A stretch of 59,873 nucleotides of DNA, filler included, from Candidatus Woesearchaeota archaeon (GTDB lineage: Archaea; Nanobdellota; Nanobdellia; Woesearchaeales; ARS49), in the NCBI GenBank assembly GCA_016188265.1. It is 7 parts of 6 records of this genome, joined end to end, with 100 filler letters (N's around TTAATTAATTAA, not from the genome) between each part and the next. Parts side by side here need not be neighbours in the genome. Positions count along the whole stretch, not along the records: positions 20,998 to 31,915 come from JACPID010000007.1; 6 more parts are not named here. One strand, 5' to 3'. The position numbers and the translations under genes were made by a program. The notes beneath the pieces were generated by a model. That model had not been told where the DNA came from, made no database searches, and saw nothing but the letters and a program-made list of their open reading frames with translations. Below, one piece after another: positions 20,998 to 38,843 of the stretch (position 1 is the first letter of the stretch; each line of letters opens with the position of its first letter).

Positions 20998-21295
20998 AGC
21001 ACAGGTTAGTAAAAAGGCTAAATCAGGAGAATACCTTTCTAAAGGTGCTTTTATGATTTATGAAAAAAAAAACATGTACCGAGTAGAACTTTCCTTAGCA
21101 GTAGGAGCATTAATTGACGGTTCTATTATGTCAGGGCCTGTTACTGCAGTTAAAAAAAACTGCGCTAAATATGTTGTTGTTCATCAAGGCAAAAATAAAG
21201 CCAGTGATTGCGCTAAAAAAATTCAAAAGCAAATAGGCGGAGATCTTGATGAGATTTTACGCTCTCTTCCCGGAGGAGACTGTAGCATTGTATAG
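20998..21295 (+). CDS. NFACT-R/DUF814 (Rqc2 C-terminal region) protein, 5'-truncated
   Basis: QVSKKAKSGEYLSKGAFMIYEKKN...IMSGP...DEILRSLPGG matches the archaeal Rqc2 C-terminus. Confidence 0.8.
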
Positions 21296-21342
21296 TGCAA
21301 CATGATTAATTTATTAAACTTAAACTGCAATAATCTGGTTTT

Positions 21343-22035
21343 GTGGGAAAAAATTTTTTAAAAAATACACTTCACGGAATTATTTTTTCTTTAACACCAA
21401 TTTTTATTATTGATAATTTATCGCATTACTTTTGTTCTAGTCTGGTTTTTAACAGTGTTTACTGCTCAATTAATTCTGGAACTTCAGATAAAAAAATATC
21501 TTTAACTGCAACTATTGCTTTGGATGAAGAATTTGTAGCAGATTTTGAGTCTGAAGAAGAGGCTGTTAATTATGCTAGAAAAATGTGCAGTATAGCTTTT
21601 AAAAAAGCAGATGAAGAATTCTCGATTGATGTTAGAATAAATAAGTTAACAACTTATAATTCAAACAATAGTCTGAAAGGAAGTGAACTTTATGGAGCTT
21701 TAAGATTATTGGAAGGTTCATATAAAGTAGGCAAACTTGGTTCAGATATTCTTATTTTACTTACAAAACAAGAAATAGAAGAAGAGGTAAAAGGTGAAAA
21801 TAAATTTACTACTGTAGGAATAGCTGAAAGATTTCATGATGTAATACTTGTTTATTATGATAAAGATAATCATGAATATTCTAACTTAGTAGTATTGCAC
21901 GAGTTTTTTCATCTTTTCAATGCTCAACATGTTTCTGATAAATTTTCAATAATGCATACTAATGCGATTTATTCAATTATAGATCAAGAAACTAGAGATA
22001 CTGTAAACCATTACAAGAATAAATTATTCTTCTAA
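21343..22035 (+). CDS. Secreted zinc metalloprotease (metzincin, M12/reprolysin-like)
   Basis: HEFFHLFNAQH followed by SIM Met-turn; TVGIA. Confidence 0.75.
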   Translation: MGKNFLKNTLHGIIFSLTPIFIIDNLSHYFCSSLVFNSVYCSINSGTSDKKISLTATIALDEEFVADFESEEEAVNYARKMCSIAFKKADEEFSIDVRINKLTTYNSNNSLKGSELYGALRLLEGSYKVGKLGSDILILLTKQEIEEEVKGENKFTTVGIAERFHDVILVYYDKDNHEYSNLVVLHEFFHLFNAQHVSDKFSIMHTNAIYSIIDQETRDTVNHYKNKLFF

Positions 22036-22053
22036 TTTACTCTTTCTACAATT

Positions 22054-23772
22054 TTAAGCAATTGACAAGTTTTTAATTTCTCTAGCCGTAGTTGCTTGTT
22101 CAGGTTTTTTATCAGGCCTATAACGCACTAATCTAGGAAACCTAAGCGCAAATCCTCTGCCTTCTTTTTCAGCACAAGTGTGCATAGGACTTCTTGTTAT
22201 TTCTGCACCTAAAACTTCAACAACAACTTTAGGTTCAAACCACACATCTGGATTCATATCTTTGTTTGCAATAACTCTTGCAGGTTTTTTAGATACAACA
22301 TACTGTTTCATTTTTTTCGGCAGTTCAGCAAGCTGTACATCTGTAAAACCACTTCCAAGCTTGCATAATGTCTCAAATTGATCTTGTTCATCATTATAAA
22401 CTGCACAAAGAAGCGCTCCATACTTACCGCTTCTTCTTCCTCTTCCATGAAATGCGCCAACAACAACTAAGTCAAAAGTATCAATGAGCTCTTTAGAATA
22501 CTCTCTTTTCCATTTAATCCAATTCCATCCTCTTGTTCCTGCTTGATAAACTGAATCAGTAGCGCAACTTTTTGCAAGTATGCCTTCACAACCGCGCTCT
22601 AATGATTTATTAAAAAATTCTTCAACACACTCAATATCATTGCAAATTGTTTGTTTTGCAAGTTGAACTATTTTACTTTCTTTTACAATTTTCTCAAGAG
22701 CTTCTCTTCTTTCTAAATAATTTCTTCTAAGAAAAGATTTATTATTTAAAAAAAGAATATCAAATAAATAAACACAAATAGGAACTTTTTTAGTATACTT
22801 TTCAACTTCGTATTTTCTTTTACGCTGCATTAATGTTTGAAAAGGAAGTAAATTGCCTTTTGGATCAATAGGAACAATTTCTCCCTCTATAATGCAATTT
22901 TTTGTTTTTATTGTTTTTTTTAATTCTCGGACTATATCTGGAAATTGGTGCGTTGTATTTTCCAGTCTTCGTGAAAATAATACAATTTTTTTGCCTGATA
23001 TATGTATTTGAACCCGTTCACCATCATACTTTTCTTCAGCTGCAATTTTTCCAGGTATTTTTTCCTTGATTATCTGAATGTTAGAAATTCTCTGAGCAAG
23101 CATCATCTGAATAGGCCTTCCTAATACAACATCAATACTTTTTATACCTTTGATGCCTTTGCTTGCAATTGTTTTTGCAATAACGCCTACGTCAGGACAT
23201 ATATTGTATGCGTGTTCCAATATTTTTTTATTTTCTTTTTTTCCTGTAAAAGTGATTGCTAAACTATCAAGCACAGTCATATCACCAACACCAAGACGAA
23301 GAGTGCCTAATATTATTTTTGTTACATATTTTGCTTCTTTTGATGAACAGTTCTTTAATAAATCCGAAAGTAAAATTATTTTTTTATATTGGCTTCCAGC
23401 TCCGCTTAGCTTTGCTATTTTGTGAAATTGATCAAATACAGCATCAACACTTAATTTACTTTTTACATTTCCAATAAAGTGTTCTGCAGTTTCACCAATA
23501 TCCCCGCTTTTTTTGTAATAATTAGTAATTACTTCTTCAGAATTTTTGCTTGCACTAGCAATAGCTTTAACAACCATTTTATCAGCCATACCAGTATTAA
23601 TATCTTCATATTTTGAAGCAATTTGCCCTAAACTAAAATAAGCAACTTTATCAATTGACTTTAAAGGACAATTTTTAAAAAAAGAAGCAAGAATTACGCG
23701 CATCTTATTGCCAGAACTTACTTTTTCCAATTCTTCAAAAACTTTCACTACTTCTGAAAATTGCAACATCAT
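22054..23772 (-). CDS. lig: ATP-dependent DNA ligase (archaeal type)
   Basis: EEKYDGERVQIH, IEGE, EGILAK, WIKWK, DLVVVGA, ALRFPR. Confidence 0.97.
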   Translation of the reverse strand: MMLQFSEVVKVFEELEKVSSGNKMRVILASFFKNCPLKSIDKVAYFSLGQIASKYEDINTGMADKMVVKAIASASKNSEEVITNYYKKSGDIGETAEHFIGNVKSKLSVDAVFDQFHKIAKLSGAGSQYKKIILLSDLLKNCSSKEAKYVTKIILGTLRLGVGDMTVLDSLAITFTGKKENKKILEHAYNICPDVGVIAKTIASKGIKGIKSIDVVLGRPIQMMLAQRISNIQIIKEKIPGKIAAEEKYDGERVQIHISGKKIVLFSRRLENTTHQFPDIVRELKKTIKTKNCIIEGEIVPIDPKGNLLPFQTLMQRKRKYEVEKYTKKVPICVYLFDILFLNNKSFLRRNYLERREALEKIVKESKIVQLAKQTICNDIECVEEFFNKSLERGCEGILAKSCATDSVYQAGTRGWNWIKWKREYSKELIDTFDLVVVGAFHGRGRRSGKYGALLCAVYNDEQDQFETLCKLGSGFTDVQLAELPKKMKQYVVSKKPARVIANKDMNPDVWFEPKVVVEVLGAEITRSPMHTCAEKEGRGFALRFPRLVRYRPDKKPEQATTAREIKNLSIA

Positions 23773-24314
23773 TTGAACAAATCTCTTGTAAATTCTAAAC
23801 GTTTCTGTATAGAAATTAATTCTTTAGGAATTTTAATAGAAGTTTTTCCAATATAATTAAGCAATTCCCATTGTGTTATTCCGAGCATTTCAGCAGTTCT
23901 GCCAACACTTAATCCATGTTCATGAAGTTTTTGTCCTTTTTTTATTTTTGCTTTATCTATTACTTCCTGAATGTATAATTTTAATCTGGCATCTGTTTTT
24001 TCAATTAAGCGAAAAATCTTTTCAATTGACTTGTTATACGAACCATATTGTTCTTTTTTTAAGGCAATAATTGCTGTTTCTAGCGGAGGATAAAATTGCG
24101 TATAATCTATTTTTTGTTCACAACATCTCTGTACAACCTTTGAAAGCGCATAAACTAAAATAGCCACAGACAATGAATCATTATCTTGATAAATGCTTGC
24201 ATCATGAATAACATGATTGCTTAACTCACTTAATTCATGATATTTTCCTGCCTTAAGCTCATTAATAGATTGCAGAAGAACTGATATAATGTCCTCTTTT
24301 ACTTTTGGAAACAT
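23769..24314 (-). CDS. Conserved hypothetical protein with C-terminal HTH-like segment
   Basis: 181-aa ORF overlapping the lig start; HGLSVGRTAEMLGITQWELLNYIG. Confidence 0.7.
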   Translation of the reverse strand: MFPKVKEDIISVLLQSINELKAGKYHELSELSNHVIHDASIYQDNDSLSVAILVYALSKVVQRCCEQKIDYTQFYPPLETAIIALKKEQYGSYNKSIEKIFRLIEKTDARLKLYIQEVIDKAKIKKGQKLHEHGLSVGRTAEMLGITQWELLNYIGKTSIKIPKELISIQKRLEFTRDLFK

Positions 24315-24346
24315 TTTCTTCTAGAAGTATATGAATTATTTAAAAC

Positions 24347-24604
24347 TTATCTATTAACTTCTTCTCTAGGTTTATAAACTATTTTTTCAAGTTCAATTAC
24401 TCTTTGATTAAGTTCTTCTGTTCTCCATAAAAGCAGTGAAATAATTTCCTGAGTTCTTTCTTCCTGCAATATTTGCATAAAAAGCAGTCTTTGTTTAAAA
24501 TAAGTTTTCTTTTGTACACTCAATCCGTATACAAAGGCCACTGTTATTACAAAAACTAAAACTATCCCAATTAAAATAGTATGATGCCATTTCATTAATA
24601 CCAC
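24347..24604 (-). CDS. Small single-TM coiled-coil protein
   Basis: N-terminal hydrophobic helix then heptad-like region. Confidence 0.55.
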   Translation of the reverse strand: MVLMKWHHTILIGIVLVFVITVAFVYGLSVQKKTYFKQRLLFMQILQEERTQEIISLLLWRTEELNQRVIELEKIVYKPREEVNR

Positions 24605-24675
24605 CCCTTTATGATCTCTTTTTTTTTAAAGTATTTAATTGTTTCTATTACACTGTTATTTGCATAGAGATTGTA

Positions 24676-24966
24676 TTATTCAATCACGAATAATTTATCA
24701 TCATGATCAACATCAAATAATCCCAGACGAGCGCCTGCATCAAGCCAGCCATGAGCATAATTCAGCGCTGCAAATGCAGTAATCCAATCACCATTTTCCT
24801 TAAAGTGTTTTGCATCACTAAAATATCTCTGAGCCATATCTAAAAAATCTTCAGCTTTATACTTCCAATTTATTTTTTTTTCAGGAGCAATTTTTACTTT
24901 TATTAAAGCTTTTTCTGTAACTGAAAAATACTTGTTTAATTTTTGCTCACTAAGTGTTATTTCCAT
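24676..24966 (-). CDS. DUF357 family protein
   Basis: DMAQRYFSDAKHF...AFAALNYAHGWLDAGARLG. Confidence 0.9.
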   Translation of the reverse strand: MEITLSEQKLNKYFSVTEKALIKVKIAPEKKINWKYKAEDFLDMAQRYFSDAKHFKENGDWITAFAALNYAHGWLDAGARLGLFDVDHDDKLFVIE

Positions 24967-25042
24967 ATACGTGATGAAGTTAGACTTCTATAAAAGTTTT
25001 TACAAAAACATTTAAATACTTCTAATGCTCTTTTAGCTTAGG

Positions 25043-26455
25043 ATGAAAAAAAGAGGAATTATTGGGCTAGTTTTTTTACTGTTATTAAGTTGTGTTCCAA
25101 CTGTTTTTGCATATCATGGTTTATCAGGAGGGCTTCCATTATATCCTGGAGCTTTAACATTTGATAAAATTGTTTATGGGGAAGATAAAGATGGAGATTA
25201 TTTACCTCTAGAAACTCCTAAAAATTATGCTGAACTAATTGGACTTCCTGATTTAATAATTTCAAAAATTCTTATTCCAGATAACTTGCCAAAAGGCACT
25301 GTAATAGATAGTTTTGCTATAGAAATTAAAAATGTAGGAACAAATGTAGCAACAGGATTTATTATTGTAACTGCAGATATGGAAAGCAGATATTTCAGGT
25401 GCAGAAATAGATTAATAGCCGGAGGAGGCCAAACACACCCAATCCAGTACCTTACTTCAAGACCTTTACGCTATGCTGAATTATTTCCAGGAGATACAAT
25501 GATTGTTCCAGTTATTCTTTCAGGAAGAGACAAGTATAGGCAGACGTATTGCAGCAGGCCAATAATAGATGACTTGCACATTGAAGTAATTGTTAATCCT
25601 ATAGGCGGTGGTTTAGGAGTTGGCCTTATTCCAAAAGGACGCCTTGACGAACTAGATATAACAAATAATAAAGCTGTAAAAGTAGTAAAAGTAAAAGAAG
25701 TTGCTGATACATATGACCACACAATAAGATTAGTTCCAGGATTAAATCCCTTTACTATTCCAGTAACATCTGATCTTTCTGCATACAAGTTCAGAGAGCT
25801 AAGTGGTTGTGAATTAATGGAGCTTCTTCCAGATGCATTTTATTCAAGAGAACAAAGAATGCCTGATATGGATAAGTCAAGAATAGTCCAAGATAATGAA
25901 GTTCTTAAATCAGGAGCACCTTATCTTGCAAGATGCGAACGCCCCTCTTATATTTTATTGCCTCAAGGAGAAGATCCAGGACCCTTTAATAAAGAATTAA
26001 GAAAAAAAGGCTTAAACTTTTTACCAACAAGAATGTCAATGTTGAATAAAAAATTATCTGACTTTATAATGGGATGTTCTGATAGTGGAAAAGATGGTAC
26101 AGAGTTTTTCTCTCTTGTTCCAGGACAAAGAACCTTTAACTTACAAGTACTATCTGAAAAAATACCTCGCGAAAGCTTTTTTGTGCCAGGAAGAGTATAT
26201 TTTGCCACATGCAGTCATGGTTATGGTGGAAATGGTATTGGCTATTGGGATCCTTCTCCAGAACAAATAGAAGCAAAACAAATAGAAGCAACAGGTTATG
26301 CAAAAGGAGCTCAATTTTATAATACTTATAATGTTAAAGTAGATCCTTATGTTAGTCAAAGACGCCCAAGACCAACTGGTGTTGGATTAACTATGCCAAG
26401 TGCATACAGAGGCTATCAATACAGGTATGTAAGCCCTTATGCATACACTACTTAA
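25043..26455 (+). CDS. Secreted/surface protein with CARDB-like Ig domain
   Basis: Signal peptide; PDLII...IKNVGT...ELDITNN (CARDB pattern); LVPGLN-type repeats; Tyr-rich tail. Confidence 0.7.
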   Translation: MKKRGIIGLVFLLLLSCVPTVFAYHGLSGGLPLYPGALTFDKIVYGEDKDGDYLPLETPKNYAELIGLPDLIISKILIPDNLPKGTVIDSFAIEIKNVGTNVATGFIIVTADMESRYFRCRNRLIAGGGQTHPIQYLTSRPLRYAELFPGDTMIVPVILSGRDKYRQTYCSRPIIDDLHIEVIVNPIGGGLGVGLIPKGRLDELDITNNKAVKVVKVKEVADTYDHTIRLVPGLNPFTIPVTSDLSAYKFRELSGCELMELLPDAFYSREQRMPDMDKSRIVQDNEVLKSGAPYLARCERPSYILLPQGEDPGPFNKELRKKGLNFLPTRMSMLNKKLSDFIMGCSDSGKDGTEFFSLVPGQRTFNLQVLSEKIPRESFFVPGRVYFATCSHGYGGNGIGYWDPSPEQIEAKQIEATGYAKGAQFYNTYNVKVDPYVSQRRPRPTGVGLTMPSAYRGYQYRYVSPYAYTT

Positions 26456-26650
26456 AAACACTAGACATACGATATTCTTTAATTTAGTTAAAATAAGTGA
26501 TTAAAAAACTATTTTTTAATATAATAAGCCACTGGACACTGGACAATTGTACGTGTGAAGTATTTAAACAAAAAAAAAAATTCTAAATTATACCTCTGTG
26601 TAAATGTGTTCGCCAACAACATCACAAAATTAAAAATGAGGTGTTTTAAC

Positions 26651-26743
26651 ATGGAAGAACTAAACCAGACAAATATTCAAAATATACTAATAAAAAATCT
26701 ACTATTACGTACAGCTAAAATTGTGGAAAATTCAGACAAATAG
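26651..26743 (+). CDS. Possible 30-aa small protein
   Basis: GAGGTG RBS before ATG 26651; MEELNQTNIQNILIKNLLLRTAKIVENSDK; its stop codon is the start of the repeat's first stem. Confidence 0.4.
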   Translation: MEELNQTNIQNILIKNLLLRTAKIVENSDK

Positions 26744-26829
26744 AAAACGAAATAAATAATAGTACAATAGTTTTGTTTTCTAAATAGTACGCGCCATAAA
26801 GAGTGTCCTACAAATTATGGCGCGTACTA
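26739..26829 (+). repeat. 91-bp two-hairpin element, copy 1
   Basis: 88/91 identical to 31799-31889; stems TAGAAAACGAAA/TTTTGTTTTCTA and TAGTACGCGCCATAA/TTATGGCGCGTACTA. Confidence 0.9.
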
Positions 26830-26993
26830 AAATAAAATTATTTTAAATTAAAAAGTGGAGGTGATTAAAATGTAATAAATTAGTTTCAAATTATTATGGT
26901 TTTGGCCAAGCACTGATATGTATTTGCAGTACGCAAAAAATTGCATTCAAGTGCAGAATGAGCGTTGTCCACAGCGCTCATTTAAGGCCAAAA

Positions 26994-27676
26994 TCATTCT
27001 TTTTTATCAATCAATCTATTAACTTCATCTTTTCGTAGATCAGTCTTACTAAACCAACTTTTAAAGCGATGCCATAATCTTGGATCACTATATTCAGCAT
27101 TAATTAAGTGTGCTGCAATTTTATTTAATTCAATAGAAGGATTAACTCAAATCTTTTTCCTCTAACTTTATTAAGAATAAGGCCTTTAATAGGAGTATTT
27201 CTTTGTTTTGCAACTTTAACTGCTCTGATAGTGGTACTTAATGTAGGATAATCAGGGCTTGTTACAACATACAACTCATCTGAAGCAATCATTGTTGAAA
27301 GAATATCTCCATGAAGATTTGGTGAAGCATCAATAAGAATAAGATCATATAAGTCGCGTACTTGAGCAAGGCATTCTTTTAATCTATAATGATCAGTTAT
27401 TTGCTTTCCTTCAACACTTGCAGGAACAATATGAAGATTTGTTGCATATTTGTGAATTGTTTTTTGCAAAGGCATTTTTCTCATCAAAGCATCTTGTATA
27501 GTTCCTTCATAATCAAACAAACCAAAATGCATAGCAAGATTCGGTGCACTAAAATTTGCATCAACTAAAAGAACTTTTTGACCAAACTCGTGAGAAAGTG
27601 CTGATCCAAGATTTGCAGCACAACTAGTTTTACCTACACCGCCTTTTAAAGCTATAATTCCTATTACTTTTCCCAT
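26994..27676 (-). pseudogene. minD: MinD/ParA-family ATPase with internal deletion and frameshift
   Basis: KGGVGKT, VDAN, IDASP; frame breaks after LNKVRGKRFEL and a MinD-like tail (PSIELNKIAAHLINAEYSDPRLW...EVNRLIDKKE) continues in another frame to TGA at 26994-26996. Confidence 0.75.
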
Positions 27677-27692
27677 TCAATTCCTCTTTTTT

Positions 27693-28751
27693 TTAGTAAT
27701 CTGTTAATGTTTTATTATGCTGTATTACTGTTGTTGATCCTTCTTTACCACCTATTATTTTTTTAGTTTTTATAAATTTTCCCTTTTCTAGCTTTTCAAT
27801 TTTTCTTTGAAACGCCTTATAAATACTTTTTCCGCCATTTTTTTTATAAAGCACGTATAAATCACCTATTTTTGACTCTGAACCTTCTTTTAGCATATGA
27901 AGAATAAGTTCAGCATCTTCATCAACAGGCCCTTGTGTATAAACAAGAGGAACTGACTGTATTGCTTTTTCAGCGTGTTCTTGCAGAATTTTTTTACTAG
28001 CATAATTTTCTGCAATTCTTCCTGCTTCTCTGAGAAGTTGAAGCCCAACACGAATATCTTTTGCAAAAAAAGTTCTTTCAACAATAATATTCAGAGCAGC
28101 ACTATTCCAAATATTAGAAACAAATGAATAATCTATTCTTTGCTTAAGAATACCTTCTGTTTCTTGTTTAGTATAAGGTTTAAATTCTACAAGTTCAGGA
28201 AGCAAACGTGACTGTACTCTTGCTTCAATTTTTTGCAGCCAATCTGAATAATTAGTTATTATAAGAATGCTTTTTTTATAAAGCTCTGCTGAAAATGCAT
28301 AAAGAAAATCCAATTCATCAACTTTATCAATCTCATCAAATGCAAGAACAACGGGTTTTTTATTAATTATTTTCAGAATAGCATCAAATAATTCTTCACT
28401 TTTTTTATTTTGAACAAATGTGTAACCAATTTGTTGGCATAATTCAAGATAAATTTTATAAGTTGTATTTTTTTGCCAACAATTAACATACAATTGAATT
28501 ACATCATCACTATTTTCTTCCAAATCCCTCAACACCCACTTTGTTGCAGCAGTTTTGCCAATTCCAGGAGCTCCACAAATGAAAACATTTCTTCCATCCC
28601 TATCCTGCAATAATGGTTTTATGCAACTTGCAATAACTCTTTGCTGATAATCCCTGTATGGAAGAAGTTTAGGAACCCAAGCAGGATCTAAAGCATCTTC
28701 ATTCTTGAATAATGATTCTCCAGAACTTAAAGTGTTATCAAAAAGACCCAT
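27693..28751 (-). CDS. cdc6: Cdc6/Orc1 AAA+ replication initiator family protein
   Basis: LFKNEDALDP.WVPK.LP.R, GAPGIGKT, YVNCW, FDEID, SRL, FKPYT, DIRVGL, C-terminal wHTH. Confidence 0.9.
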   Translation of the reverse strand: MGLFDNTLSSGESLFKNEDALDPAWVPKLLPYRDYQQRVIASCIKPLLQDRDGRNVFICGAPGIGKTAATKWVLRDLEENSDDVIQLYVNCWQKNTTYKIYLELCQQIGYTFVQNKKSEELFDAILKIINKKPVVLAFDEIDKVDELDFLYAFSAELYKKSILIITNYSDWLQKIEARVQSRLLPELVEFKPYTKQETEGILKQRIDYSFVSNIWNSAALNIIVERTFFAKDIRVGLQLLREAGRIAENYASKKILQEHAEKAIQSVPLVYTQGPVDEDAELILHMLKEGSESKIGDLYVLYKKNGGKSIYKAFQRKIEKLEKGKFIKTKKIIGGKEGSTTVIQHNKTLTDY

Positions 28752-28847
28752 ATGTTTGTTTAGTTTTCATTTATTTATAAAAGTTACAGTTATTCAACTC
28801 TTTTTAAACACTAATCTTCATTTATTGACTCAGTACTACGCTCTATA

Positions 28848-29606
28848 CTAAAACCCATCTAATTCTTCAATTAATTGCACTAATTGTTTTGGTTCTGTGA
28901 TAAGAAAGTCAGGTTTTTCTTTTTCTAGATCTTCTTTTGCTTCAAAACCCCAGGTTACTGCTGCAGTTAATGCCTTTTTTGAATTGTCAGGATTTTTTCT
29001 TCTCAAATTTTTTGATGCGCGAACATCTACAACACTGTCTCCAACATGCAATGTTTCTTCAGGATCAGTTCCTAAAAGATCAAGCGCTAATTCAATAGAG
29101 TAAGGATGCGGCTTTACTAAGTTAACTTTCACCCCATTAACATCTTCTGGCAATTCAGACTTTGTAAGAACAATATCAAAACAATTTAAAATTCCTTCTT
29201 TGCGAATTGTTCTTTCAAACCCTTCCCATGCATTAGTTGTGTTAAGCGCGATTCTCAATCCTTTGCATTTTCCTTTTCTAGGACGTGAGCGTTCATAAAT
29301 TTCTGTCACAGCATCTTTTATTCCTGGAATTAACGATATATTTGTATTTTTCTTCCACTCTTTAAAATAAGTCCACAAATTATTTTTTTCAGCATCATAA
29401 TCAATTCCAAATAAAGCATATATTCCTGGAAGCCCCTCTTTTTTCACTGCAGCATTGTACTTTTCAACAAAAACATGACTGTAGTTTGTAAATGGAAATT
29501 TCTTGCTGTACAAATCAGTAACACAATGTCTCAACCACAAGAATTGGTCGTTCATAGAGTCGATGAGTGTTCCATCAACATCAAATATTAAGCCGTATAA
29601 AGACAT
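28848..29606 (-). CDS. HAD-superfamily hydrolase (phosphoglycolate phosphatase-like)
   Basis: FDVDGTLIDS, KPHP, HVGDSVVDV, VTWGF. Confidence 0.9.
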   Translation of the reverse strand: MSLYGLIFDVDGTLIDSMNDQFLWLRHCVTDLYSKKFPFTNYSHVFVEKYNAAVKKEGLPGIYALFGIDYDAEKNNLWTYFKEWKKNTNISLIPGIKDAVTEIYERSRPRKGKCKGLRIALNTTNAWEGFERTIRKEGILNCFDIVLTKSELPEDVNGVKVNLVKPHPYSIELALDLLGTDPEETLHVGDSVVDVRASKNLRRKNPDNSKKALTAAVTWGFEAKEDLEKEKPDFLITEPKQLVQLIEELDGF

Positions 29607-29678
29607 AAAAAGAAAAAAAATTAAATTACTTTTTAATCATTATTGTGCTGCAATCATTATGTTTTCTGTTTTTTTCTA

Positions 29679-30836
29679 TTATTTCAGAGTGCTAATAATA
29701 TTGTTCATATTTTGTTCACTCATATTTTTCTTGTACTCTTTTGAACATTTTATTACCTGATTTATATCAATATTAAATCCTCTTTTATTTAGTGATCTTG
29801 CAACAAGAACAATATACTGGCCAAGTTGTGTTACATTTTTAGGATCTTGAGTATAATGGCATTTTTCAAAATCAATCATGACAATTTTCTTGCCAATAAT
29901 AACATGCTTTAATGGATGATGCATTTCCTCTTTATTAATTCCCAATTTATCCATCATAAAAGACTGTCTAAATATTTCTGAAACTACTTTTTGAATATCC
30001 TTTTTCTCAGCTGTTGGAAGCCAGTCTTTTATGTAAACACCTTCAACAAATTTGTAGGCAAGATAATTATTGCCTGAAAATAAATATCTTGGGCCTATGC
30101 TGTATTTGTTAAGTTTTTGCAAGAATTCAGTTTCATTTTTTATTCTTTCTTGAGCTTGACTTTCAGGATGCTTTACTTTCATTGCAATCTTTTTATTATC
30201 ATAACTTCCAGTAAAAATAATGCCTCGTTTGCCTTTTGAGAAATATCTAGTGTTAACTACTCCTTTACTTTCAAGATCCCTTAGCTCAGGTCTTTTTTCA
30301 AGCTTGTATACATACAATGTTTCAAAAAATAATCTTTTGGTCGATAATTGCTCAAATGTAAGCAAGTTATTAGTTATTAATTGCTCAACCATGTTTTTGT
30401 TGGAAAGTGAAGAAAAAACCAATAAGATAATGCCTTTTTCAGCAAGAAACTCATTAACTTGATTAAGAAACAATTGAATAACTTCATAACCTTTCTTTCC
30501 CCCTTCTAATGCAAGCCTTTGAATTTTGTGGTCTTGGGGCAAGTAAGGCGGGTTGAAAATTATTGTATCAAACTTAATTTTTTTTTTAAAAGAAGAAAAA
30601 AGATTTCCACAGATATAATTTATTTTTTCATGTTTACTATATTTTTTTGAGTACTCAATTGCTTTCTTATCAACATCAACAGCATAAACTTGTTTTACAT
30701 TTGCCAAATGAGCTGCAGCTAAAGCCTGAATTCCAGAACCAGTACCCATATCAAGAACAACCCCTTGAGCAAAACACCTAACTTGGTATTCAAGCATATA
30801 ACTATCTTCTCTTGGAGAATATACTTCGTCGATCAT
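29679..30836 (-). CDS. HemK2/N6AMT1-type methyltransferase fused to a C-terminal archaeal Ser/Thr kinase-like domain
   Basis: VYSPREDS, LDMGTGSG, FNPPY; then SKGKRG..F, IAMK, E..FL, NKEEMHHPLKHVI, IDFE. Confidence 0.8.
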   Translation of the reverse strand: MIDEVYSPREDSYMLEYQVRCFAQGVVLDMGTGSGIQALAAAHLANVKQVYAVDVDKKAIEYSKKYSKHEKINYICGNLFSSFKKKIKFDTIIFNPPYLPQDHKIQRLALEGGKKGYEVIQLFLNQVNEFLAEKGIILLVFSSLSNKNMVEQLITNNLLTFEQLSTKRLFFETLYVYKLEKRPELRDLESKGVVNTRYFSKGKRGIIFTGSYDNKKIAMKVKHPESQAQERIKNETEFLQKLNKYSIGPRYLFSGNNYLAYKFVEGVYIKDWLPTAEKKDIQKVVSEIFRQSFMMDKLGINKEEMHHPLKHVIIGKKIVMIDFEKCHYTQDPKNVTQLGQYIVLVARSLNKRGFNIDINQVIKCSKEYKKNMSEQNMNNIISTLK

Positions 30837-31282
30837 TCGTTTATTTTTTTTAAATATTCTTTAATTCTATCAAGAATTGATTTAAGATAATACTGTTCGA
30901 TTTTTTCTTCAAATAACTCCAAAAGATTAGCTTGTTCAGCAACACTATACTTATTCTGCTTGCTTTCAATAAATGAATAATTTTTCAATCTTCTTAAATG
31001 CCTTCTAATATTTGGAGAAGTTATTCCTAAAAGAGGAATTTTAAGCTTTTTTCTTTCTTCTTTAACAAGATCTTCAATTTCAACTGCTAATACAGGCTCT
31101 TTACTTTTAAGAATAACATGAAATACATCAACAATAGAATCCCTGCTATCGCCAGGATTAAGCAAGCCTAAGCTTAAACACAACTTTTTAACAAGATCTC
31201 TGCCTTCTAAATTATACGGCTTAGGATATTTTCTAAGAGTTATTTCTGCAAGAGGGGTATCACGAGCTACTTTTTTATCCAT
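30833..31282 (-). CDS. Hypothetical winged-helix-like protein
   Basis: GGAGGG RBS; EITLRKY...CLSLGLL.PGDSRD...NIRRHLRRLK. Confidence 0.65.
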   Translation of the reverse strand: MDKKVARDTPLAEITLRKYPKPYNLEGRDLVKKLCLSLGLLNPGDSRDSIVDVFHVILKSKEPVLAVEIEDLVKEERKKLKIPLLGITSPNIRRHLRRLKNYSFIESKQNKYSVAEQANLLELFEEKIEQYYLKSILDRIKEYLKKINE

Positions 31283-31332
31283 AAACCCTCCTGAGCAATT
31301 GTTGTATAAAAAGATTTGTAAACTAAAGTTTT

Positions 31333-31390
31333 GCGTTCGCATGAAATTCTTTGAATTTCAGCGCACACAAACTGCATTGCAGTTTGTCGT
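31333..31390. repeat. REP-like tandem hairpins
   Basis: TGAAATTC-TTT-GAATTTCA (31342-31360) and ACAAACTGCA-T-TGCAGTTTGT (31367-31387). Confidence 0.6.
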
Positions 31391-31438
31391 GTTTTATTAA
31401 AGCAAAATTTAAATAGTGGTTTTATTCAGAATCTTATA

Positions 31439-31819
31439 ATGCATGAAGTAACTACTTTTGAATTTATTTTAAATTGGCTGGTTATAGCCCTATACATTTT
31501 AATTATTTCCCTTGTTTTAAAAATGATGTATAAATCAAAAGAAGTTATTCCAAAAATATTTTTAATGATTTCTCTAGGTTTTCTTCCTAAGATTTTCTTT
31601 CACATTTTTGAAAGCTTGGCATATTTTAATTTAAATCTCCTTCCTTCACATGAAACATTACAATACGCCCTATTTAGGCATAGTACAGATTTTATTGCTC
31701 TTTTATCTGTTTTTTTATATTTTAACTGGTTTGATAAAAAATTCATAACACCAATTTACTCATTTTGTGAAAATCTTCTAAAACAAAAAAAATCTAATAA
31801 TAGAAAACGAAATAAATAA
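31439..31819 (+). CDS. Small membrane protein
   Basis: Three hydrophobic segments; TTTAAATA box upstream; stop falls inside repeat copy 2. Confidence 0.65.
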   Translation: MHEVTTFEFILNWLVIALYILIISLVLKMMYKSKEVIPKIFLMISLGFLPKIFFHIFESLAYFNLNLLPSHETLQYALFRHSTDFIALLSVFLYFNWFDKKFITPIYSFCENLLKQKKSNNRKRNK

Positions 31820-31889
31820 TAGGACAATAGTTTCGTTTTCTAAATAGTGCGCGCCATAAAGAGTGTCCTACAAATTATGGCGCGTACTA
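31799..31889 (+). repeat. 91-bp two-hairpin element, copy 2
   Basis: Direct repeat of 26739-26829; contig ends 26 nt later. Confidence 0.9.
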
Positions 31890-31915
31890 TAAGCAAAAAC
31901 CGTTAACTGGCAAAT

Positions 31916-32015
31916 NNNNNNNNNNNNNNNNNNNNNNNNNNNNNNNNNNNNNNNNNNNNTTAATTAATTAANNNNNNNNNNNNNNNNNNNNNNNNNNNNN
32001 NNNNNNNNNNNNNNN
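31916..32015. other. Artificial contig linker
   Basis: 100 nt of N with TTAATTAATTAA. Confidence 0.99.
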
Positions 32016-32250
32016 TTTCCTATTTTATAGCTATTAATCGCGCAAGAATGCTTTGATTGCGCAACTACATTAACTTTTGAAATGTCAAATTGTTTCAAGT
32101 CAGAAAATTTAGACAGCTCGCTCTTCTCAAAATAAGAATCAATGCCTCTGCCATCAAGACATCCTTCAGATAGCACAAAATAAATTATGAAAAAACCCAC
32201 AATAACTAATATACCATACAGTGTGATTTTTTTCTATTCTTTTTCTGCAT
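32016..32250 (-). CDS. Single-TM hypothetical protein, 3'-truncated, apparent frameshift in an A7 run near the start
   Basis: MQKKNRKK joins ITLYGILVIVGFFIIYFVLSEG... if one A is added at 32227-32233. Confidence 0.4.
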
Positions 32251-32279
32251 TCTCAATTATATCCAAATTTTACGCATAT

Positions 32280-32351
32280 AAATTCTTTTGTTTTTCTTCC
32301 AGTTCCCTCTACAATGTTCATTGGCATGGAATATGTTGCTCTCCATAGTTG
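32280..32351 (-). pseudogene. Remnant of a four-helix-bundle (23S rRNA IVP / bAvd-like) gene
   Basis: QLWRATYSMPMNIVEGTGRKTKEF resembles family core QLRRAAxSIPxNIAEGxGR; bounded by in-frame stops. Confidence 0.55.
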
Positions 32352-32502
32352 TTATTTTACAGCTCTTATATTTCTTCTTAATCATGCTTGCTAACAGCTT
32401 TCAACAAACTCTTCAACTTACTCTCAGAAAGTCCACTCAACCCACCACCTAACGACCCACAATCGTCACCATCAACTACAGACCACAAACCACCAACCAA
32501 AC

Positions 32503-32574
32503 TGGACTCGCCGGGATTTGAACCCGGAGTCTTTCCAATGCGAATGGAAAATTTTACCATTAAACTACAAGCCC
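32503..32574 (-). tRNA. tRNA-Ala(CGC)
   Basis: GGGCTTG/CGAGTCC-A acceptor with G3.U70, anticodon arm TTCCA-TT CGC AT-TGGAA, T-arm GGTTCAAATCC; CCA not encoded. Confidence 0.95.
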
Positions 32575-32580
32575 AGAATC

Positions 32581-33798
32581 TTAGTGTTTAAAATTTCTTC
32601 CAAATTTGTAGTAAGTTTCTCTGTTTCTGAATTTACTTCTTCCTTGACTAAACTTAAAAGGTTTGTTAAATTGTGGTTTTGGCATTTCTATTTTTTTAAA
32701 ATCAGGCAAAGGCCGTTTTTCTATTTTTAATGATCTGTCATCTAAGACACGATTGAAATTATTATAGTCGCGTTCTTCTAGAAGATTTATTGCAATCCCT
32801 GCATGACCTATTCTTGCTGTTCTTCCAATTCTGTGAATGTATTCATGGGATGTTTTTGGTATTGAATAATTGATAATATGCGTTAAATGTTTAACATCTA
32901 TTCCTCTTGCAGCAACATCACTTGCTACTAGAACATTTATTTTGCCAGCTTTAAAGTCGTCCATTATATTGTTTCTTTTGTTTTGACTTAAGCCTCCGTG
33001 CAATGCAACTGCTTCAATTCCTTGTTTTGCCAGATTTTTTGCAACAATATGTGTTTCAGTTCTTGTTCCGCAAAAAACTAGCGCTAATTCAGGTTTTTCT
33101 TCTTTTATTAAATGCACAAGCAATGAAAATTTTTCATTTCTTCTGACATTGTAATAAATTTGCTGCAATGTTTTTGCTGAAATGTGCGTGCTGGTCTTAA
33201 CTTTAGCAGGATTGTTCATAAATCTTGAAGCAATTTTTTGAACTTCATTACTAATTGTTGCGCTAAAAATAATCATTTGCTTATTTCTAGATGTGAATTT
33301 AAGTATAGCATTAACATCTTCTACAAAACCCATCTCAAACATTTTATCTGCTTCATCCAACACACAAAATTTTATATCAGACAAAGATAAGGTTCTTCTA
33401 CGTAAATGATCCAGAACTCTGCCAGGTGTTCCAACTATTATGTCTGCTTTAGGTATATTGTCAATTTGAGGATTAATGCTCACCCCGCCGTAAATCACAA
33501 CTATTTTTACAGGCTTATATTTTGAGAAAGAAGCTAAATTTCGCGCAATCTGATCAGTTAATTCTCTTGTAGGTGCAAGGATTATTGCCTGCAAAGAACT
33601 TATTGGTTTGACCTTTTCAAGAATTGGCAGTCCAAAAGCAGCTGTTTTTCCTGAACCAGTTTCTGACTGGCCGATTAAATCTTTTCCCTCTCGTATTATT
33701 GGAATTGCTTGCTGTTGTATTGGTGTTGGTTCTTCAAAACCAAGTTCATCTACTGCTCTTTGAATGGGAGCTTCTAAATTTAATTCATTATATTTCAT
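32581..33798 (-). CDS. DEAD-box RNA helicase
   Basis: Q motif GFEEPTPIQ, GSGKT, PTREL, TPGR, DEAD, SAT, ARGID, HRIGRTAR. Confidence 0.96.
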   Translation of the reverse strand: MKYNELNLEAPIQRAVDELGFEEPTPIQQQAIPIIREGKDLIGQSETGSGKTAAFGLPILEKVKPISSLQAIILAPTRELTDQIARNLASFSKYKPVKIVVIYGGVSINPQIDNIPKADIIVGTPGRVLDHLRRRTLSLSDIKFCVLDEADKMFEMGFVEDVNAILKFTSRNKQMIIFSATISNEVQKIASRFMNNPAKVKTSTHISAKTLQQIYYNVRRNEKFSLLVHLIKEEKPELALVFCGTRTETHIVAKNLAKQGIEAVALHGGLSQNKRNNIMDDFKAGKINVLVASDVAARGIDVKHLTHIINYSIPKTSHEYIHRIGRTARIGHAGIAINLLEERDYNNFNRVLDDRSLKIEKRPLPDFKKIEMPKPQFNKPFKFSQGRSKFRNRETYYKFGRNFKH

Positions 33799-38018: not shown

Positions 38019-38843
38019 ATGATAAAAGAATTAACATTTCCAATTGAGGAAGTTATACAAGAAACTGAAGATACTGTTACATTAAGATTAAAAAAAACAC
38101 AACAATTTGATTACTTTCCAGGCCAGTTCATAACTATTGATATTAGACAATTTAAAGAACAAGAAACTGAAGATACTGTTACATTAAGATTAAAAAAAAC
38201 ACAACAATTTGATTACTTTCCAGGCCAGTTCATAACTATTGATATTAGACAATTTAAAGAATTAGAAAATATTGAAAGAGGGAAAAAAGTCGGCCCAAGA
38301 GCATACTCAATAGGCAGTTCACCTACTAGAGATCATGTTGATATTACTGTAAAAAAAGAAGATAAAGGAAGATTTTCTGTATGGATTGTTGAAGAAAAAC
38401 CCTTAAAAAAAGGAGATTTTGTAACTTTTAAAGGACCTTGGGGGCATTTTATATATGAAGAAAACTATGGTGATGTTGTTTTAATTGGCGCAGGAAGCGG
38501 AATTGTCCCATTAAAAACAATACTTGAATACATTGCTGATAAAAAATTAAAAGCTTCAGCCACACTATTGTACTCAAATAAAACTCAAAAAGACATCATC
38601 TACAAAAAAGAACTAGATTCAATTAATTCTTCAAATGTAAAAATTCATTACACATTAACACAAGAACAATGGAATGGAAGAACTGGAAGAATAAATGAAC
38701 AAATGATCAAAGAATGTGTTGGTGATTTACAAAACAAAAGATATTACTTATGTGGACCTATGATTTTTGCTAAAGAAATAAAAGAAATATTAATTAAAAA
38801 AAATGTTAAGCAAGAATTAATAAAAGTTGAAGCCTGGGGATAA
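38019..38843 (+). CDS. FNR-family FAD/NAD(P)-binding oxidoreductase with 34-aa tandem duplication
   Basis: PGQF, RAYSIGS, GPWGHF, GAGSGIVP, YLCGP, EAWG. Confidence 0.9.
   Translation: MIKELTFPIEEVIQETEDTVTLRLKKTQQFDYFPGQFITIDIRQFKEQETEDTVTLRLKKTQQFDYFPGQFITIDIRQFKELENIERGKKVGPRAYSIGSSPTRDHVDITVKKEDKGRFSVWIVEEKPLKKGDFVTFKGPWGHFIYEENYGDVVLIGAGSGIVPLKTILEYIADKKLKASATLLYSNKTQKDIIYKKELDSINSSNVKIHYTLTQEQWNGRTGRINEQMIKECVGDLQNKRYYLCGPMIFAKEIKEILIKKNVKQELIKVEAWG
38058..38261 (+). repeat. Perfect in-frame 102-bp tandem duplication
   Basis: 38058-38159 identical to 38160-38261. Confidence 0.95.

Follow-up and report, generated by a model that had tools for sequence, protein, structure and literature searches.

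An 89-bp twin-hairpin repeat of Woesearchaeota, very probably a miniature transposable element with IS630-type ends

The DNA analysed here (the window) is a stretch of 59,873 nucleotides from a Candidatus Woesearchaeota archaeon (GCA_016188265.1; genome G000) and consists of contigs joined by N spacers; two copies of a short repeat with two hairpins lie in it, both at the end of contig C4. We are highly confident that this repeat is an 89-bp non-autonomous DNA transposon, i.e., a MITE (miniature inverted-repeat transposable element), assembled from both 26-29-bp ends of an insertion sequence (IS) of the IS630/Tc1/mariner (ITm) family. The repeat is short, has terminal inverted repeats and a target duplication, occurs in many, mostly intergenic copies, and shares both its ends and its duplication length with autonomous IS. 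It carries no transposase gene; most likely it uses an IS630-type transposase in trans.

A BLAST search with the second window copy against the genome returned 11 full copies (94-100% identical) on seven contigs and seven partial matches, where a preliminary description of this DNA had known of two. The full copies run from TAG to CTA, except one ending in CTG, and all 11 are flanked by a 3-bp direct repeat (AAA in five cases, TAA in four, TTA and ATA in one each). Shuffled flanks gave on average 3.9 three-base matches (p = 9e-5); at other lengths, flanks matched in none of 11 copies for 4 bp and in five of 11 for 2 bp. Because the 3-bp duplications abut the TAG...CTA ends, the unit is 89 bp long; the 91 bp originally assigned to it include two initial bases that belong to the left target duplication. 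The copies and the parts of copy 2 are located in the window as follows:

26738..26740, + strand: left target-site duplication of copy 1, AAA (flank comparison)
26741..26829, no strand assigned: MITE copy 1, 89 bp, TAG...CTA (BLAST, flank analysis)
26830..26832, + strand: right target-site duplication of copy 1, AAA (flank comparison)
31798..31800, + strand: left target-site duplication of copy 2, TAA (flank comparison)
31801..31889, no strand assigned: MITE copy 2, 89 bp, TAG...CTA (BLAST, flank analysis)
31801..31826, + strand: 26-bp terminal inverted repeat, left end of copy 2 (end alignment)
31830..31842, + strand: inner inverted copy of left-terminus bases 1-13, closing hairpin 1 (sequence)
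31843..31844, + strand: 2-nt linker of copy 2 (sequence)
31845..31859, + strand: inner inverted copy of right-terminus bases 1-15, opening hairpin 2 (sequence)
31864..31889, - strand: 26-bp terminal inverted repeat, right end of copy 2 (22 of 26 positions as in the left end of the IS630-type element L105, see below)
31890..31892, + strand: right target-site duplication of copy 2, TAA (flank comparison)

Much of the earlier sequence reading was reproduced. The copies, then delimited as 26739-26829 and 31799-31889, differ at three positions (26763/31823, T/G; 26774/31834, T/C; 26789/31849, A/G), and the contig ends 26 nt past copy 2. Stem 1 has 12 bp plus a T.G pair and stem 2 has 15 bp; both differences within stems create G.U pairs on the + strand. 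Loop 1 (TAGGACA, 31820-26) and loop 2 (TGTCCTA, 31864-70) are present in copy 2, and copy 1 has TAGTACA. The two termini agree at 18 of 26 positions by hand count, i.e., terminal inverted repeats are present, and the linker between the hairpins measures 1-3 nt in a tally across the family.

The family extends well beyond this genome. A DNA search detected the element in seven of 60 relatives, and a covariance model placed the family in 33 of 151 genomes of the order, a count that includes G000 and the unpublished genomes G167 and G156. A phylum search with model R2, whose helix 1 was one column off, gave matches in 25 of 151 genomes, all in the same order. The corrected model R3, applied at E 1e-5 to a class-wide sample, matched three of 151 genomes (G000 and two of the 18 same-order genomes listed) and none of the others. 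Candidates were accepted if both stems had at least nine of 12 pairs and the ends were TA, which retained 66 of 83 first candidates; with one unpublished entry removed and a further 66 added, 122 of 131 passed. Among the 122 copies, 79 have three-base target duplications, 32 have TA and 11 none, and the 79 compare with a mean of 25 and a maximum of 41 in 20,000 flank shuffles. Four of the 122 are located inside called open reading frames (ORFs), and 115 measure 88-91 bp, a figure biased by the model used for finding copies. In the model's orientation TAA (43) far outnumbers TTA (10) among the 79 three-base copies, which hints at an oriented capture of targets; this polarity was listed for GAAC-box MITEs, a type present in genomes G051, G084, G110, G151, G468 and G475.

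The IS630 catalytic domain DDE_3 was identified in four of five MITE-rich genomes; across the order, 19 of 151 genomes have it. G000 excluded, nine of 32 MITE-bearing genomes encode IS630 as compared with nine of 118 others (p = 0.004), and exclusion also of the two unpublished genomes leaves nine of 30 MITE-bearing genomes (p = 0.002). For 34 IS630 loci we determined the ends and reconstructed a tree from the catalytic domains. Two well-supported clades comprise 27 rows, of which 21 could be scored: in 18 of these the ends are TAG...CTA and flanked by 3-bp duplications that vary in sequence, and three have no duplication. The six other rows were unscorable, since three had their flanks at contig ends, two lacked an end pair and one was mis-called; four of the seven rows outside the two clades were scored as TA. 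The autonomous elements have imperfect terminal repeats of 26-28 bp, and their lineages diverge down to 26% identity with D, D and E invariant across the alignment. The partner is thus homologous to IS630 and resembles it in mode of action; with its 3-bp footprint it is not a canonical, TA-duplicating member of the family.

In the collected set of IS ends, a single element is the best match for either end of the window element (22 of 26 and 19 of 26 positions): L105, a 1,024-bp sequence from a genome of the same family. Its ORFs encode HTH_33, HTH_32 and HTH_23 helix-turn-helix (HTH) domains together with DDE_3, its ends are TAG...CTA, and it is flanked by an AAA/AAA duplication. The preliminary description had itself named a match to a known IS end as an observation that would refute its proposal, and such a match to an IS end is present here. 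L128, the sister of L105, is second best, and both share a GGACA box (box meaning positions 20-26 of an end). The left terminus of copy 2 (31801..31826) agrees with the right end of L105 at 19 of 26 positions and with its left end at 20 of 26, and it could derive from either IS end. Other MITE subfamilies match other IS lineages: the GAAC-box type is similar to the second clade and the GCAT-box type to L112/L124. The duplication classes of MITE and IS agree imperfectly: when the best single end was selected, 36 of 44 three-base MITEs chose a three-base IS and eight of 15 TA MITEs a TA-type end; TA-duplicating MITEs often match ends of TA-class IS, including the IS630 of G000 itself (22 of 26). 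The IS with the closest match over positions 1-19 has more of the box in common as well (7.2 vs 5.2 of 14; 70 distinct sequences, not independent).

Following the biochemistry of ISY100 and mariner (PMC2170065), from which cut-and-paste in trans is inferred, a transposase supplied by such a partner would bind both ends, excise the element and insert it with a 3-bp stagger into A+T-rich intergenic DNA. Other enzymes were considered as well. No IS1595 was present in the five genomes searched; loci of DDE_Tnp_1 (five of five genomes, four above the cut-off) and two tyrosine recombinase loci were rejected as partners, since no element-like sequence was found at them (best E 0.68).

The exact complementarity of loops 1 and 2 in copy 2 had been taken as a possible kissing loop. 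Counted from each terminus, the loop motifs occupy positions 20-26, which belong to the inner portion of the terminal inverted repeat, and the loops are complementary because these positions of the left and right repeats match each other. Left-right identity at 20-26 amounts to 0.82 in 28 autonomous elements, whose ends are 1 kb apart and form no hairpins, vs 0.69 in 41 MITE variants; inheritance from the IS terminal repeat explains the match. Among 37 diverse members, pairing in the loop-loop helix reaches 73% and five of six pairs show two-sided changes; this apparent covariation follows the box of the respective IS lineage. In Mos1, the linker of the transposase binds repeat positions 15-18 and HTH1 the inner region (PMC4505599), and by analogy the box would lie in the HTH1-bound inner part of the repeat. 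The loops may possibly be paired in a folded strand. Within genomes (nine clusters of at least four copies, most of them found by the structure model, which favours intact stems), changes per site reach 0.33 in the box, 0.27 in the other loop, 0.11 in the outer and 0.08 in the inner arms. For the G000 subfamily, found by BLAST, the corresponding figures are 4/24 in the outer arms, 4/24 in the inner arms, 6/14 in the box and 4/27 in the remainder.

Several observations weigh against the repeat being a MITE mobilised by IS630-type partners, or against details of this view. The variability of the box weakens a strict binding site as much as it weakens a kissing loop. No IS630 match exists in 23 of the 32 MITE-bearing genomes, and the co-occurrence of MITE and IS630 is confounded by kinship and general IS load and may reflect no more than these. 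With 41 of 52 end positions shared (38 in the alternative orientation), L105 is not the exact parent but a relative, and no cognate transposase of the 3-bp clades was found in the G000 assembly (98% complete, 25 contigs). Among the 15 TA-class MITEs listed, six match best an end of a 3-bp-class IS and one an unscored end. The only IS630 of G000 is of TA class, has no left end that could be found and matches a TA-class MITE on C4. Separately, C13 yielded a weak tblastn match (E 0.003), which overlaps with a small ORF that is unrelated.

The main competing explanation, that the repeat is a structured RNA or 3'-untranslated-region (3'-UTR) element whose stems and kissing loop work in the transcript, possibly as a domesticated MITE, appears improbable to us. 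The fold is certainly stable: z-scores of copies 1 and 2 are -8.7 and -8.0 on the + strand and -6.5 and -7.4 on the - strand, and none of 200 shuffles was equally stable. Covariation of the stems among homologues, suggested at the outset as a check, was indeed found, with 94% of positions paired in the 37 diverse members and two-sided changes affecting 10 of 12 pairs in one stem and 11 of 12 in the other; the alignment rows are related, hence the shuffle control overstates it. The covarying loop-loop helix would also fit an RNA, as would the orientation of five of the seven callable G000 copies of the window's subfamily, which run with the upstream gene, and transcripts of bacterial MITEs are described as influencing mRNA stability (PMC2229807). 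As DNA, however, the strands of the element fold alike (-18.5 and -18.1 kcal/mol), and its loops match less well than the same positions of the IS parents, which lack hairpins; the box is not conserved among copies. Simple ORF calls put 55 of the 122 copies between tandem genes, 31 between divergent ones and 26 between convergent ones; the other 10 are without a called neighbour on one side. Of the two directions, 43 of the 83 copies with callable direction run with transcription and 40 against it. The apparent co-orientation with upstream genes seen in G000 was gone in this larger set. On the transcribed strand G.U and A.C pairs occur at 27:18 (p = 0.23), and because this excess is not significant, the two wobble-preserving changes in the window are not a family-wide signal. 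Placement between divergent genes, even orientation and the G.U count together speak against a 3'-UTR element, and none of the five Rfam matches in 21000-33000 at E up to 10 overlaps the repeat. The + strand ORF whose stop codon copy 1 had been reported to overlap does exist (26555-26743, 62 aa) but has no Pfam match and is perhaps no gene; with or without the element, it ends at the same stop codon. The element may influence RNA as a side effect: transcripts through the element would fold, and by the precedent in PMC2229807 such folding might affect mRNA stability.

As to the proposed ssDNA mobile element, mobility is borne out by dispersal and target duplications, whereas the ssDNA route is not supported, given those duplications, the inverted repeats and the lack of a Y1 transposase match in this genome. 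An HUH element (IS200/IS605, PATE or REP-like) or one mobilised by a reverse transcriptase (RT) is very improbable. Hairpins at both ends would suit it, and one copy is located in the last codons of an RT gene of a diversity-generating retroelement (DGR) on C8. Yet the target duplications have a fixed length and the element has terminal inverted repeats, neither of which is a feature of PATEs as described in PMC3119063; Y1_Tnp and the TnpB zinc ribbon are unmatched in the 98% complete assembly; and just one of the 11 copies is at an RT gene. We find it scarcely credible that the 5-kb minD-cdc6 block is carried by a single composite element with the two window copies as its ends, another option raised earlier. 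The copies are in direct orientation and 5,060 bp apart, but each has a duplication of its own (AAA/AAA and TAA/TAA), the outer flanks differ (AAA vs TAA), the intervening genes are of housekeeping type, and nine further full copies reside elsewhere.

That the repeat is a MITE leaves its inner arms to be explained. In all MITE subfamilies found, bases 1-12 of either end recur inside the element as inverted copies, whose changes are compensatory; in GAAC-box variants the inner arms mirror 586 of 753 pairwise differences of the outer arms (not independent). Such copies are absent from all autonomous elements (best match 5-10 of 13). The arm-linker-arm segment equals the reverse complement of the element's end-to-end junction with a spacer of 1-3 nt. 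The conserved twin-hairpin build, combined with a three-base footprint, is unusual, and the same build and 88-91-bp length recur with ends from IS630 lineages only 26% identical. We tentatively prefer a DNA-level role in transposition, in which the arms would bring two close ends together: either strand can fold, and extrusion of hairpins or a cruciform would act as a hinge for ends about 90 bp apart. Variants of 138, 142 and 181 bp, likewise flanked by 3-bp duplications, count against a strict geometry, as does the 78-80-bp MADE1, described as amplified with only a 6-bp spacer (PMC5224488).

Nearly as likely, the arms are functionless by-products of fold-back synthesis at transposase-bound ends and are self-correcting. 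Quasi-palindromes are subject to template-switch correction, which here would keep the arms matched. The MITE is derivable base for base from IS ends, the arm-linker-arm segment being the inverted end-to-end junction; correction would leave few one-sided changes (inner arms 0.08 and outer arms 0.11, vs 0.27-0.33 in the loops) together with mirrored double changes; and the longer variants indicate that exact geometry is dispensable. Set against this are the recurrence of one build and length (115 of 122 copies, model-biased) across such distant lineages and the end scan of G000, which revealed no multi-copy MITE of the plain two-end type; one decayed derivative of that type is present in G131. 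More specifically, though we regard it as doubtful, two hairpins or a double cruciform, extruded by an element too short to bend, could form part of transposition itself. The hairpins would then restore bases 1-12 of both ends in duplex form from a single strand, loop-loop pairing would rebuild the inner binding box, and the transposase would act on folded DNA. If true, this would be a structure-based parasitism of cut-and-paste transposases, maintained in IS630 lineages only 26% identical and with either type of footprint, and it might account for the two-arm CIR repeats of alphaproteobacteria as well. An RNA role of the arms is less likely than the hinge or the by-product.

SM1 of Sulfolobus is about 80 bp long and related to IS630. 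SM1-SM4 are, like the window element, archaeal MITEs (PMC10969869). With RUP of Streptococcus pneumoniae, for which IS630-Spn1 is the proposed partner (PMC2229807), and with the Hsmar1-derived MADE1 (PMC5224488), the window MITE shares its short, non-coding, multi-copy and intergenic nature; in both, too, the ends match an autonomous IS630/Tc1/mariner element and the target is duplicated, although the window subfamily duplicates 3 bp and not TA. MADE1 is given as two inverted repeats with a 6-bp spacer (PMC5224488) and other bacterial repeats as one 5'-to-3' stem-loop (PMC2229807), whereas the window MITE forms two local hairpins from inner copies of its ends. A precedent for the two-arm build, by description, is provided by the CIR repeats of Caulobacter and Brucella (PMC2229807), which are intergenic, about 110 bp long (vs 89) and consist of two long inverted-repeat arms and a linker, with TA at the termini; the GANTC methylation site of these alphaproteobacterial repeats is absent from both window copies. 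The review by Delihas sets CIR apart from other bacterial repeats and gives its mode of mobility as unknown (PMC2229807).

The autonomous partners resemble ISY100 (PMC2170065) in their two-part HTH and DDE_3 transposases and imperfect 26-28-bp terminal repeats. Transposition of the IS630/Tc1/mariner family is stated there to occur exclusively into TA (PMC2170065), in contrast to the two clades identified here, which leave 3-bp duplications of varied sequence. A search of the open literature, with ISfinder, subscription journals and supplements outside its scope, found no description of the twin-hairpin family or of a 3-bp IS630 clade. Among eukaryotic ITm relatives, Zator and TBE have 3-bp duplications. 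An exact 24-base junction pattern had no matches in metagenome_contigs; a degenerate end pattern retrieved two genome_contigs (one archaeal IS end, and one Pseudoalteromonas match taken as chance), one metagenome_contigs entry (a further MITE, L111) and no viral_contigs.

With this assignment a false candidate for a structured RNA would be removed, and a widespread repeat family of Woesearchaeota would be tied to specific autonomous partners. Screens for RNA discovery in DPANN archaea face a trap here, since terminal repeats can look like a kissing loop with covariation. IS630-family transposases with a 3-bp footprint, in a family described as TA-only, are small enzymes whose target stagger is directly testable, and the conserved four-ended build offers a clean test of how very short MITEs join two ends.

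In favour of a transposon, a filled/empty pair documents a TA-class member inserted within the linker of another subfamily. The TA-class twin-hairpin MITE is located at CTAG of that linker in G000 (C22:42188-42368, C11:21573-21754 and C22:64569-64706); the nested composite of 181-182 bp occurs twice, once with a GAA duplication, next to a 138-bp deleted form. The inner termini of TA-class MITEs are AAG at 18 of 54, the outer termini never, and those of 3-bp-class MITEs remain TAG at 65 of 74; the altered inner termini of the TA class could avoid self-insertion or cleavage of the linker. At C23:5584-5898 lies a 315-bp element that is derived from a further subfamily and contains nested palindromic inserts; several copies break the assembly (contig ends C7, C16 and C10).

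Four DNA runs of one study, with no RNA run listed beside them, provided contigs for comparison with window 24000-31915. Summed contig depth over the element in the public runs is 519-937, vs about 32 for single-copy DNA in run X1, which is not a copy number but fits a multi-copy repeat. No contig had a joint skipping copy 1 or joining copies 1 and 2, rare variants being dropped from contigs. In each of runs X1-X3, one contig leads from window 31899 back to 31800, i.e., from just beyond the element's end to its start, pointing to two tandem copies, separated by about 10 bp, somewhere in the population.

The C8 copy lies in a complete-looking DGR (L018, G000:C8:1-2284) with the variable repeat of the target ORF at 553-639, a template repeat at 1005-1097 that differs at adenines, and the RT gene at 1160-2284. 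Without the element, the RT frame would reach a nearby stop nine residues earlier (365 vs 374 aa). The end of contig C13 repeats part of the DGR target gene, and elsewhere on C13 (31392-35186) a 1,264-aa ORF looks, from a translation read by eye, like DNA gyrase subunit A with an intein.

Other features of the window were noted in passing. MinD (27125-27676) stops at 183 aa with its tail in another frame (break at 27142/27143); because the contigs of X1-X3 hold about 119 extra bases there, the window probably carries an assembly deletion, or else a strain variant, at this break. Between copy 1 and the end of minD, small G+C-rich hairpins occur in a stretch that is single-copy (26916-26995), and an exact 102-bp tandem duplication occupies 38057-38260. 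A second family of repeats, each about 70 bp long and bearing two small hairpins (window ~31329-31398), has six copies in the genome, several of them within the loop of a larger hairpin, and units similar to it are present in the linker of the MITE at C16:16605-16746.

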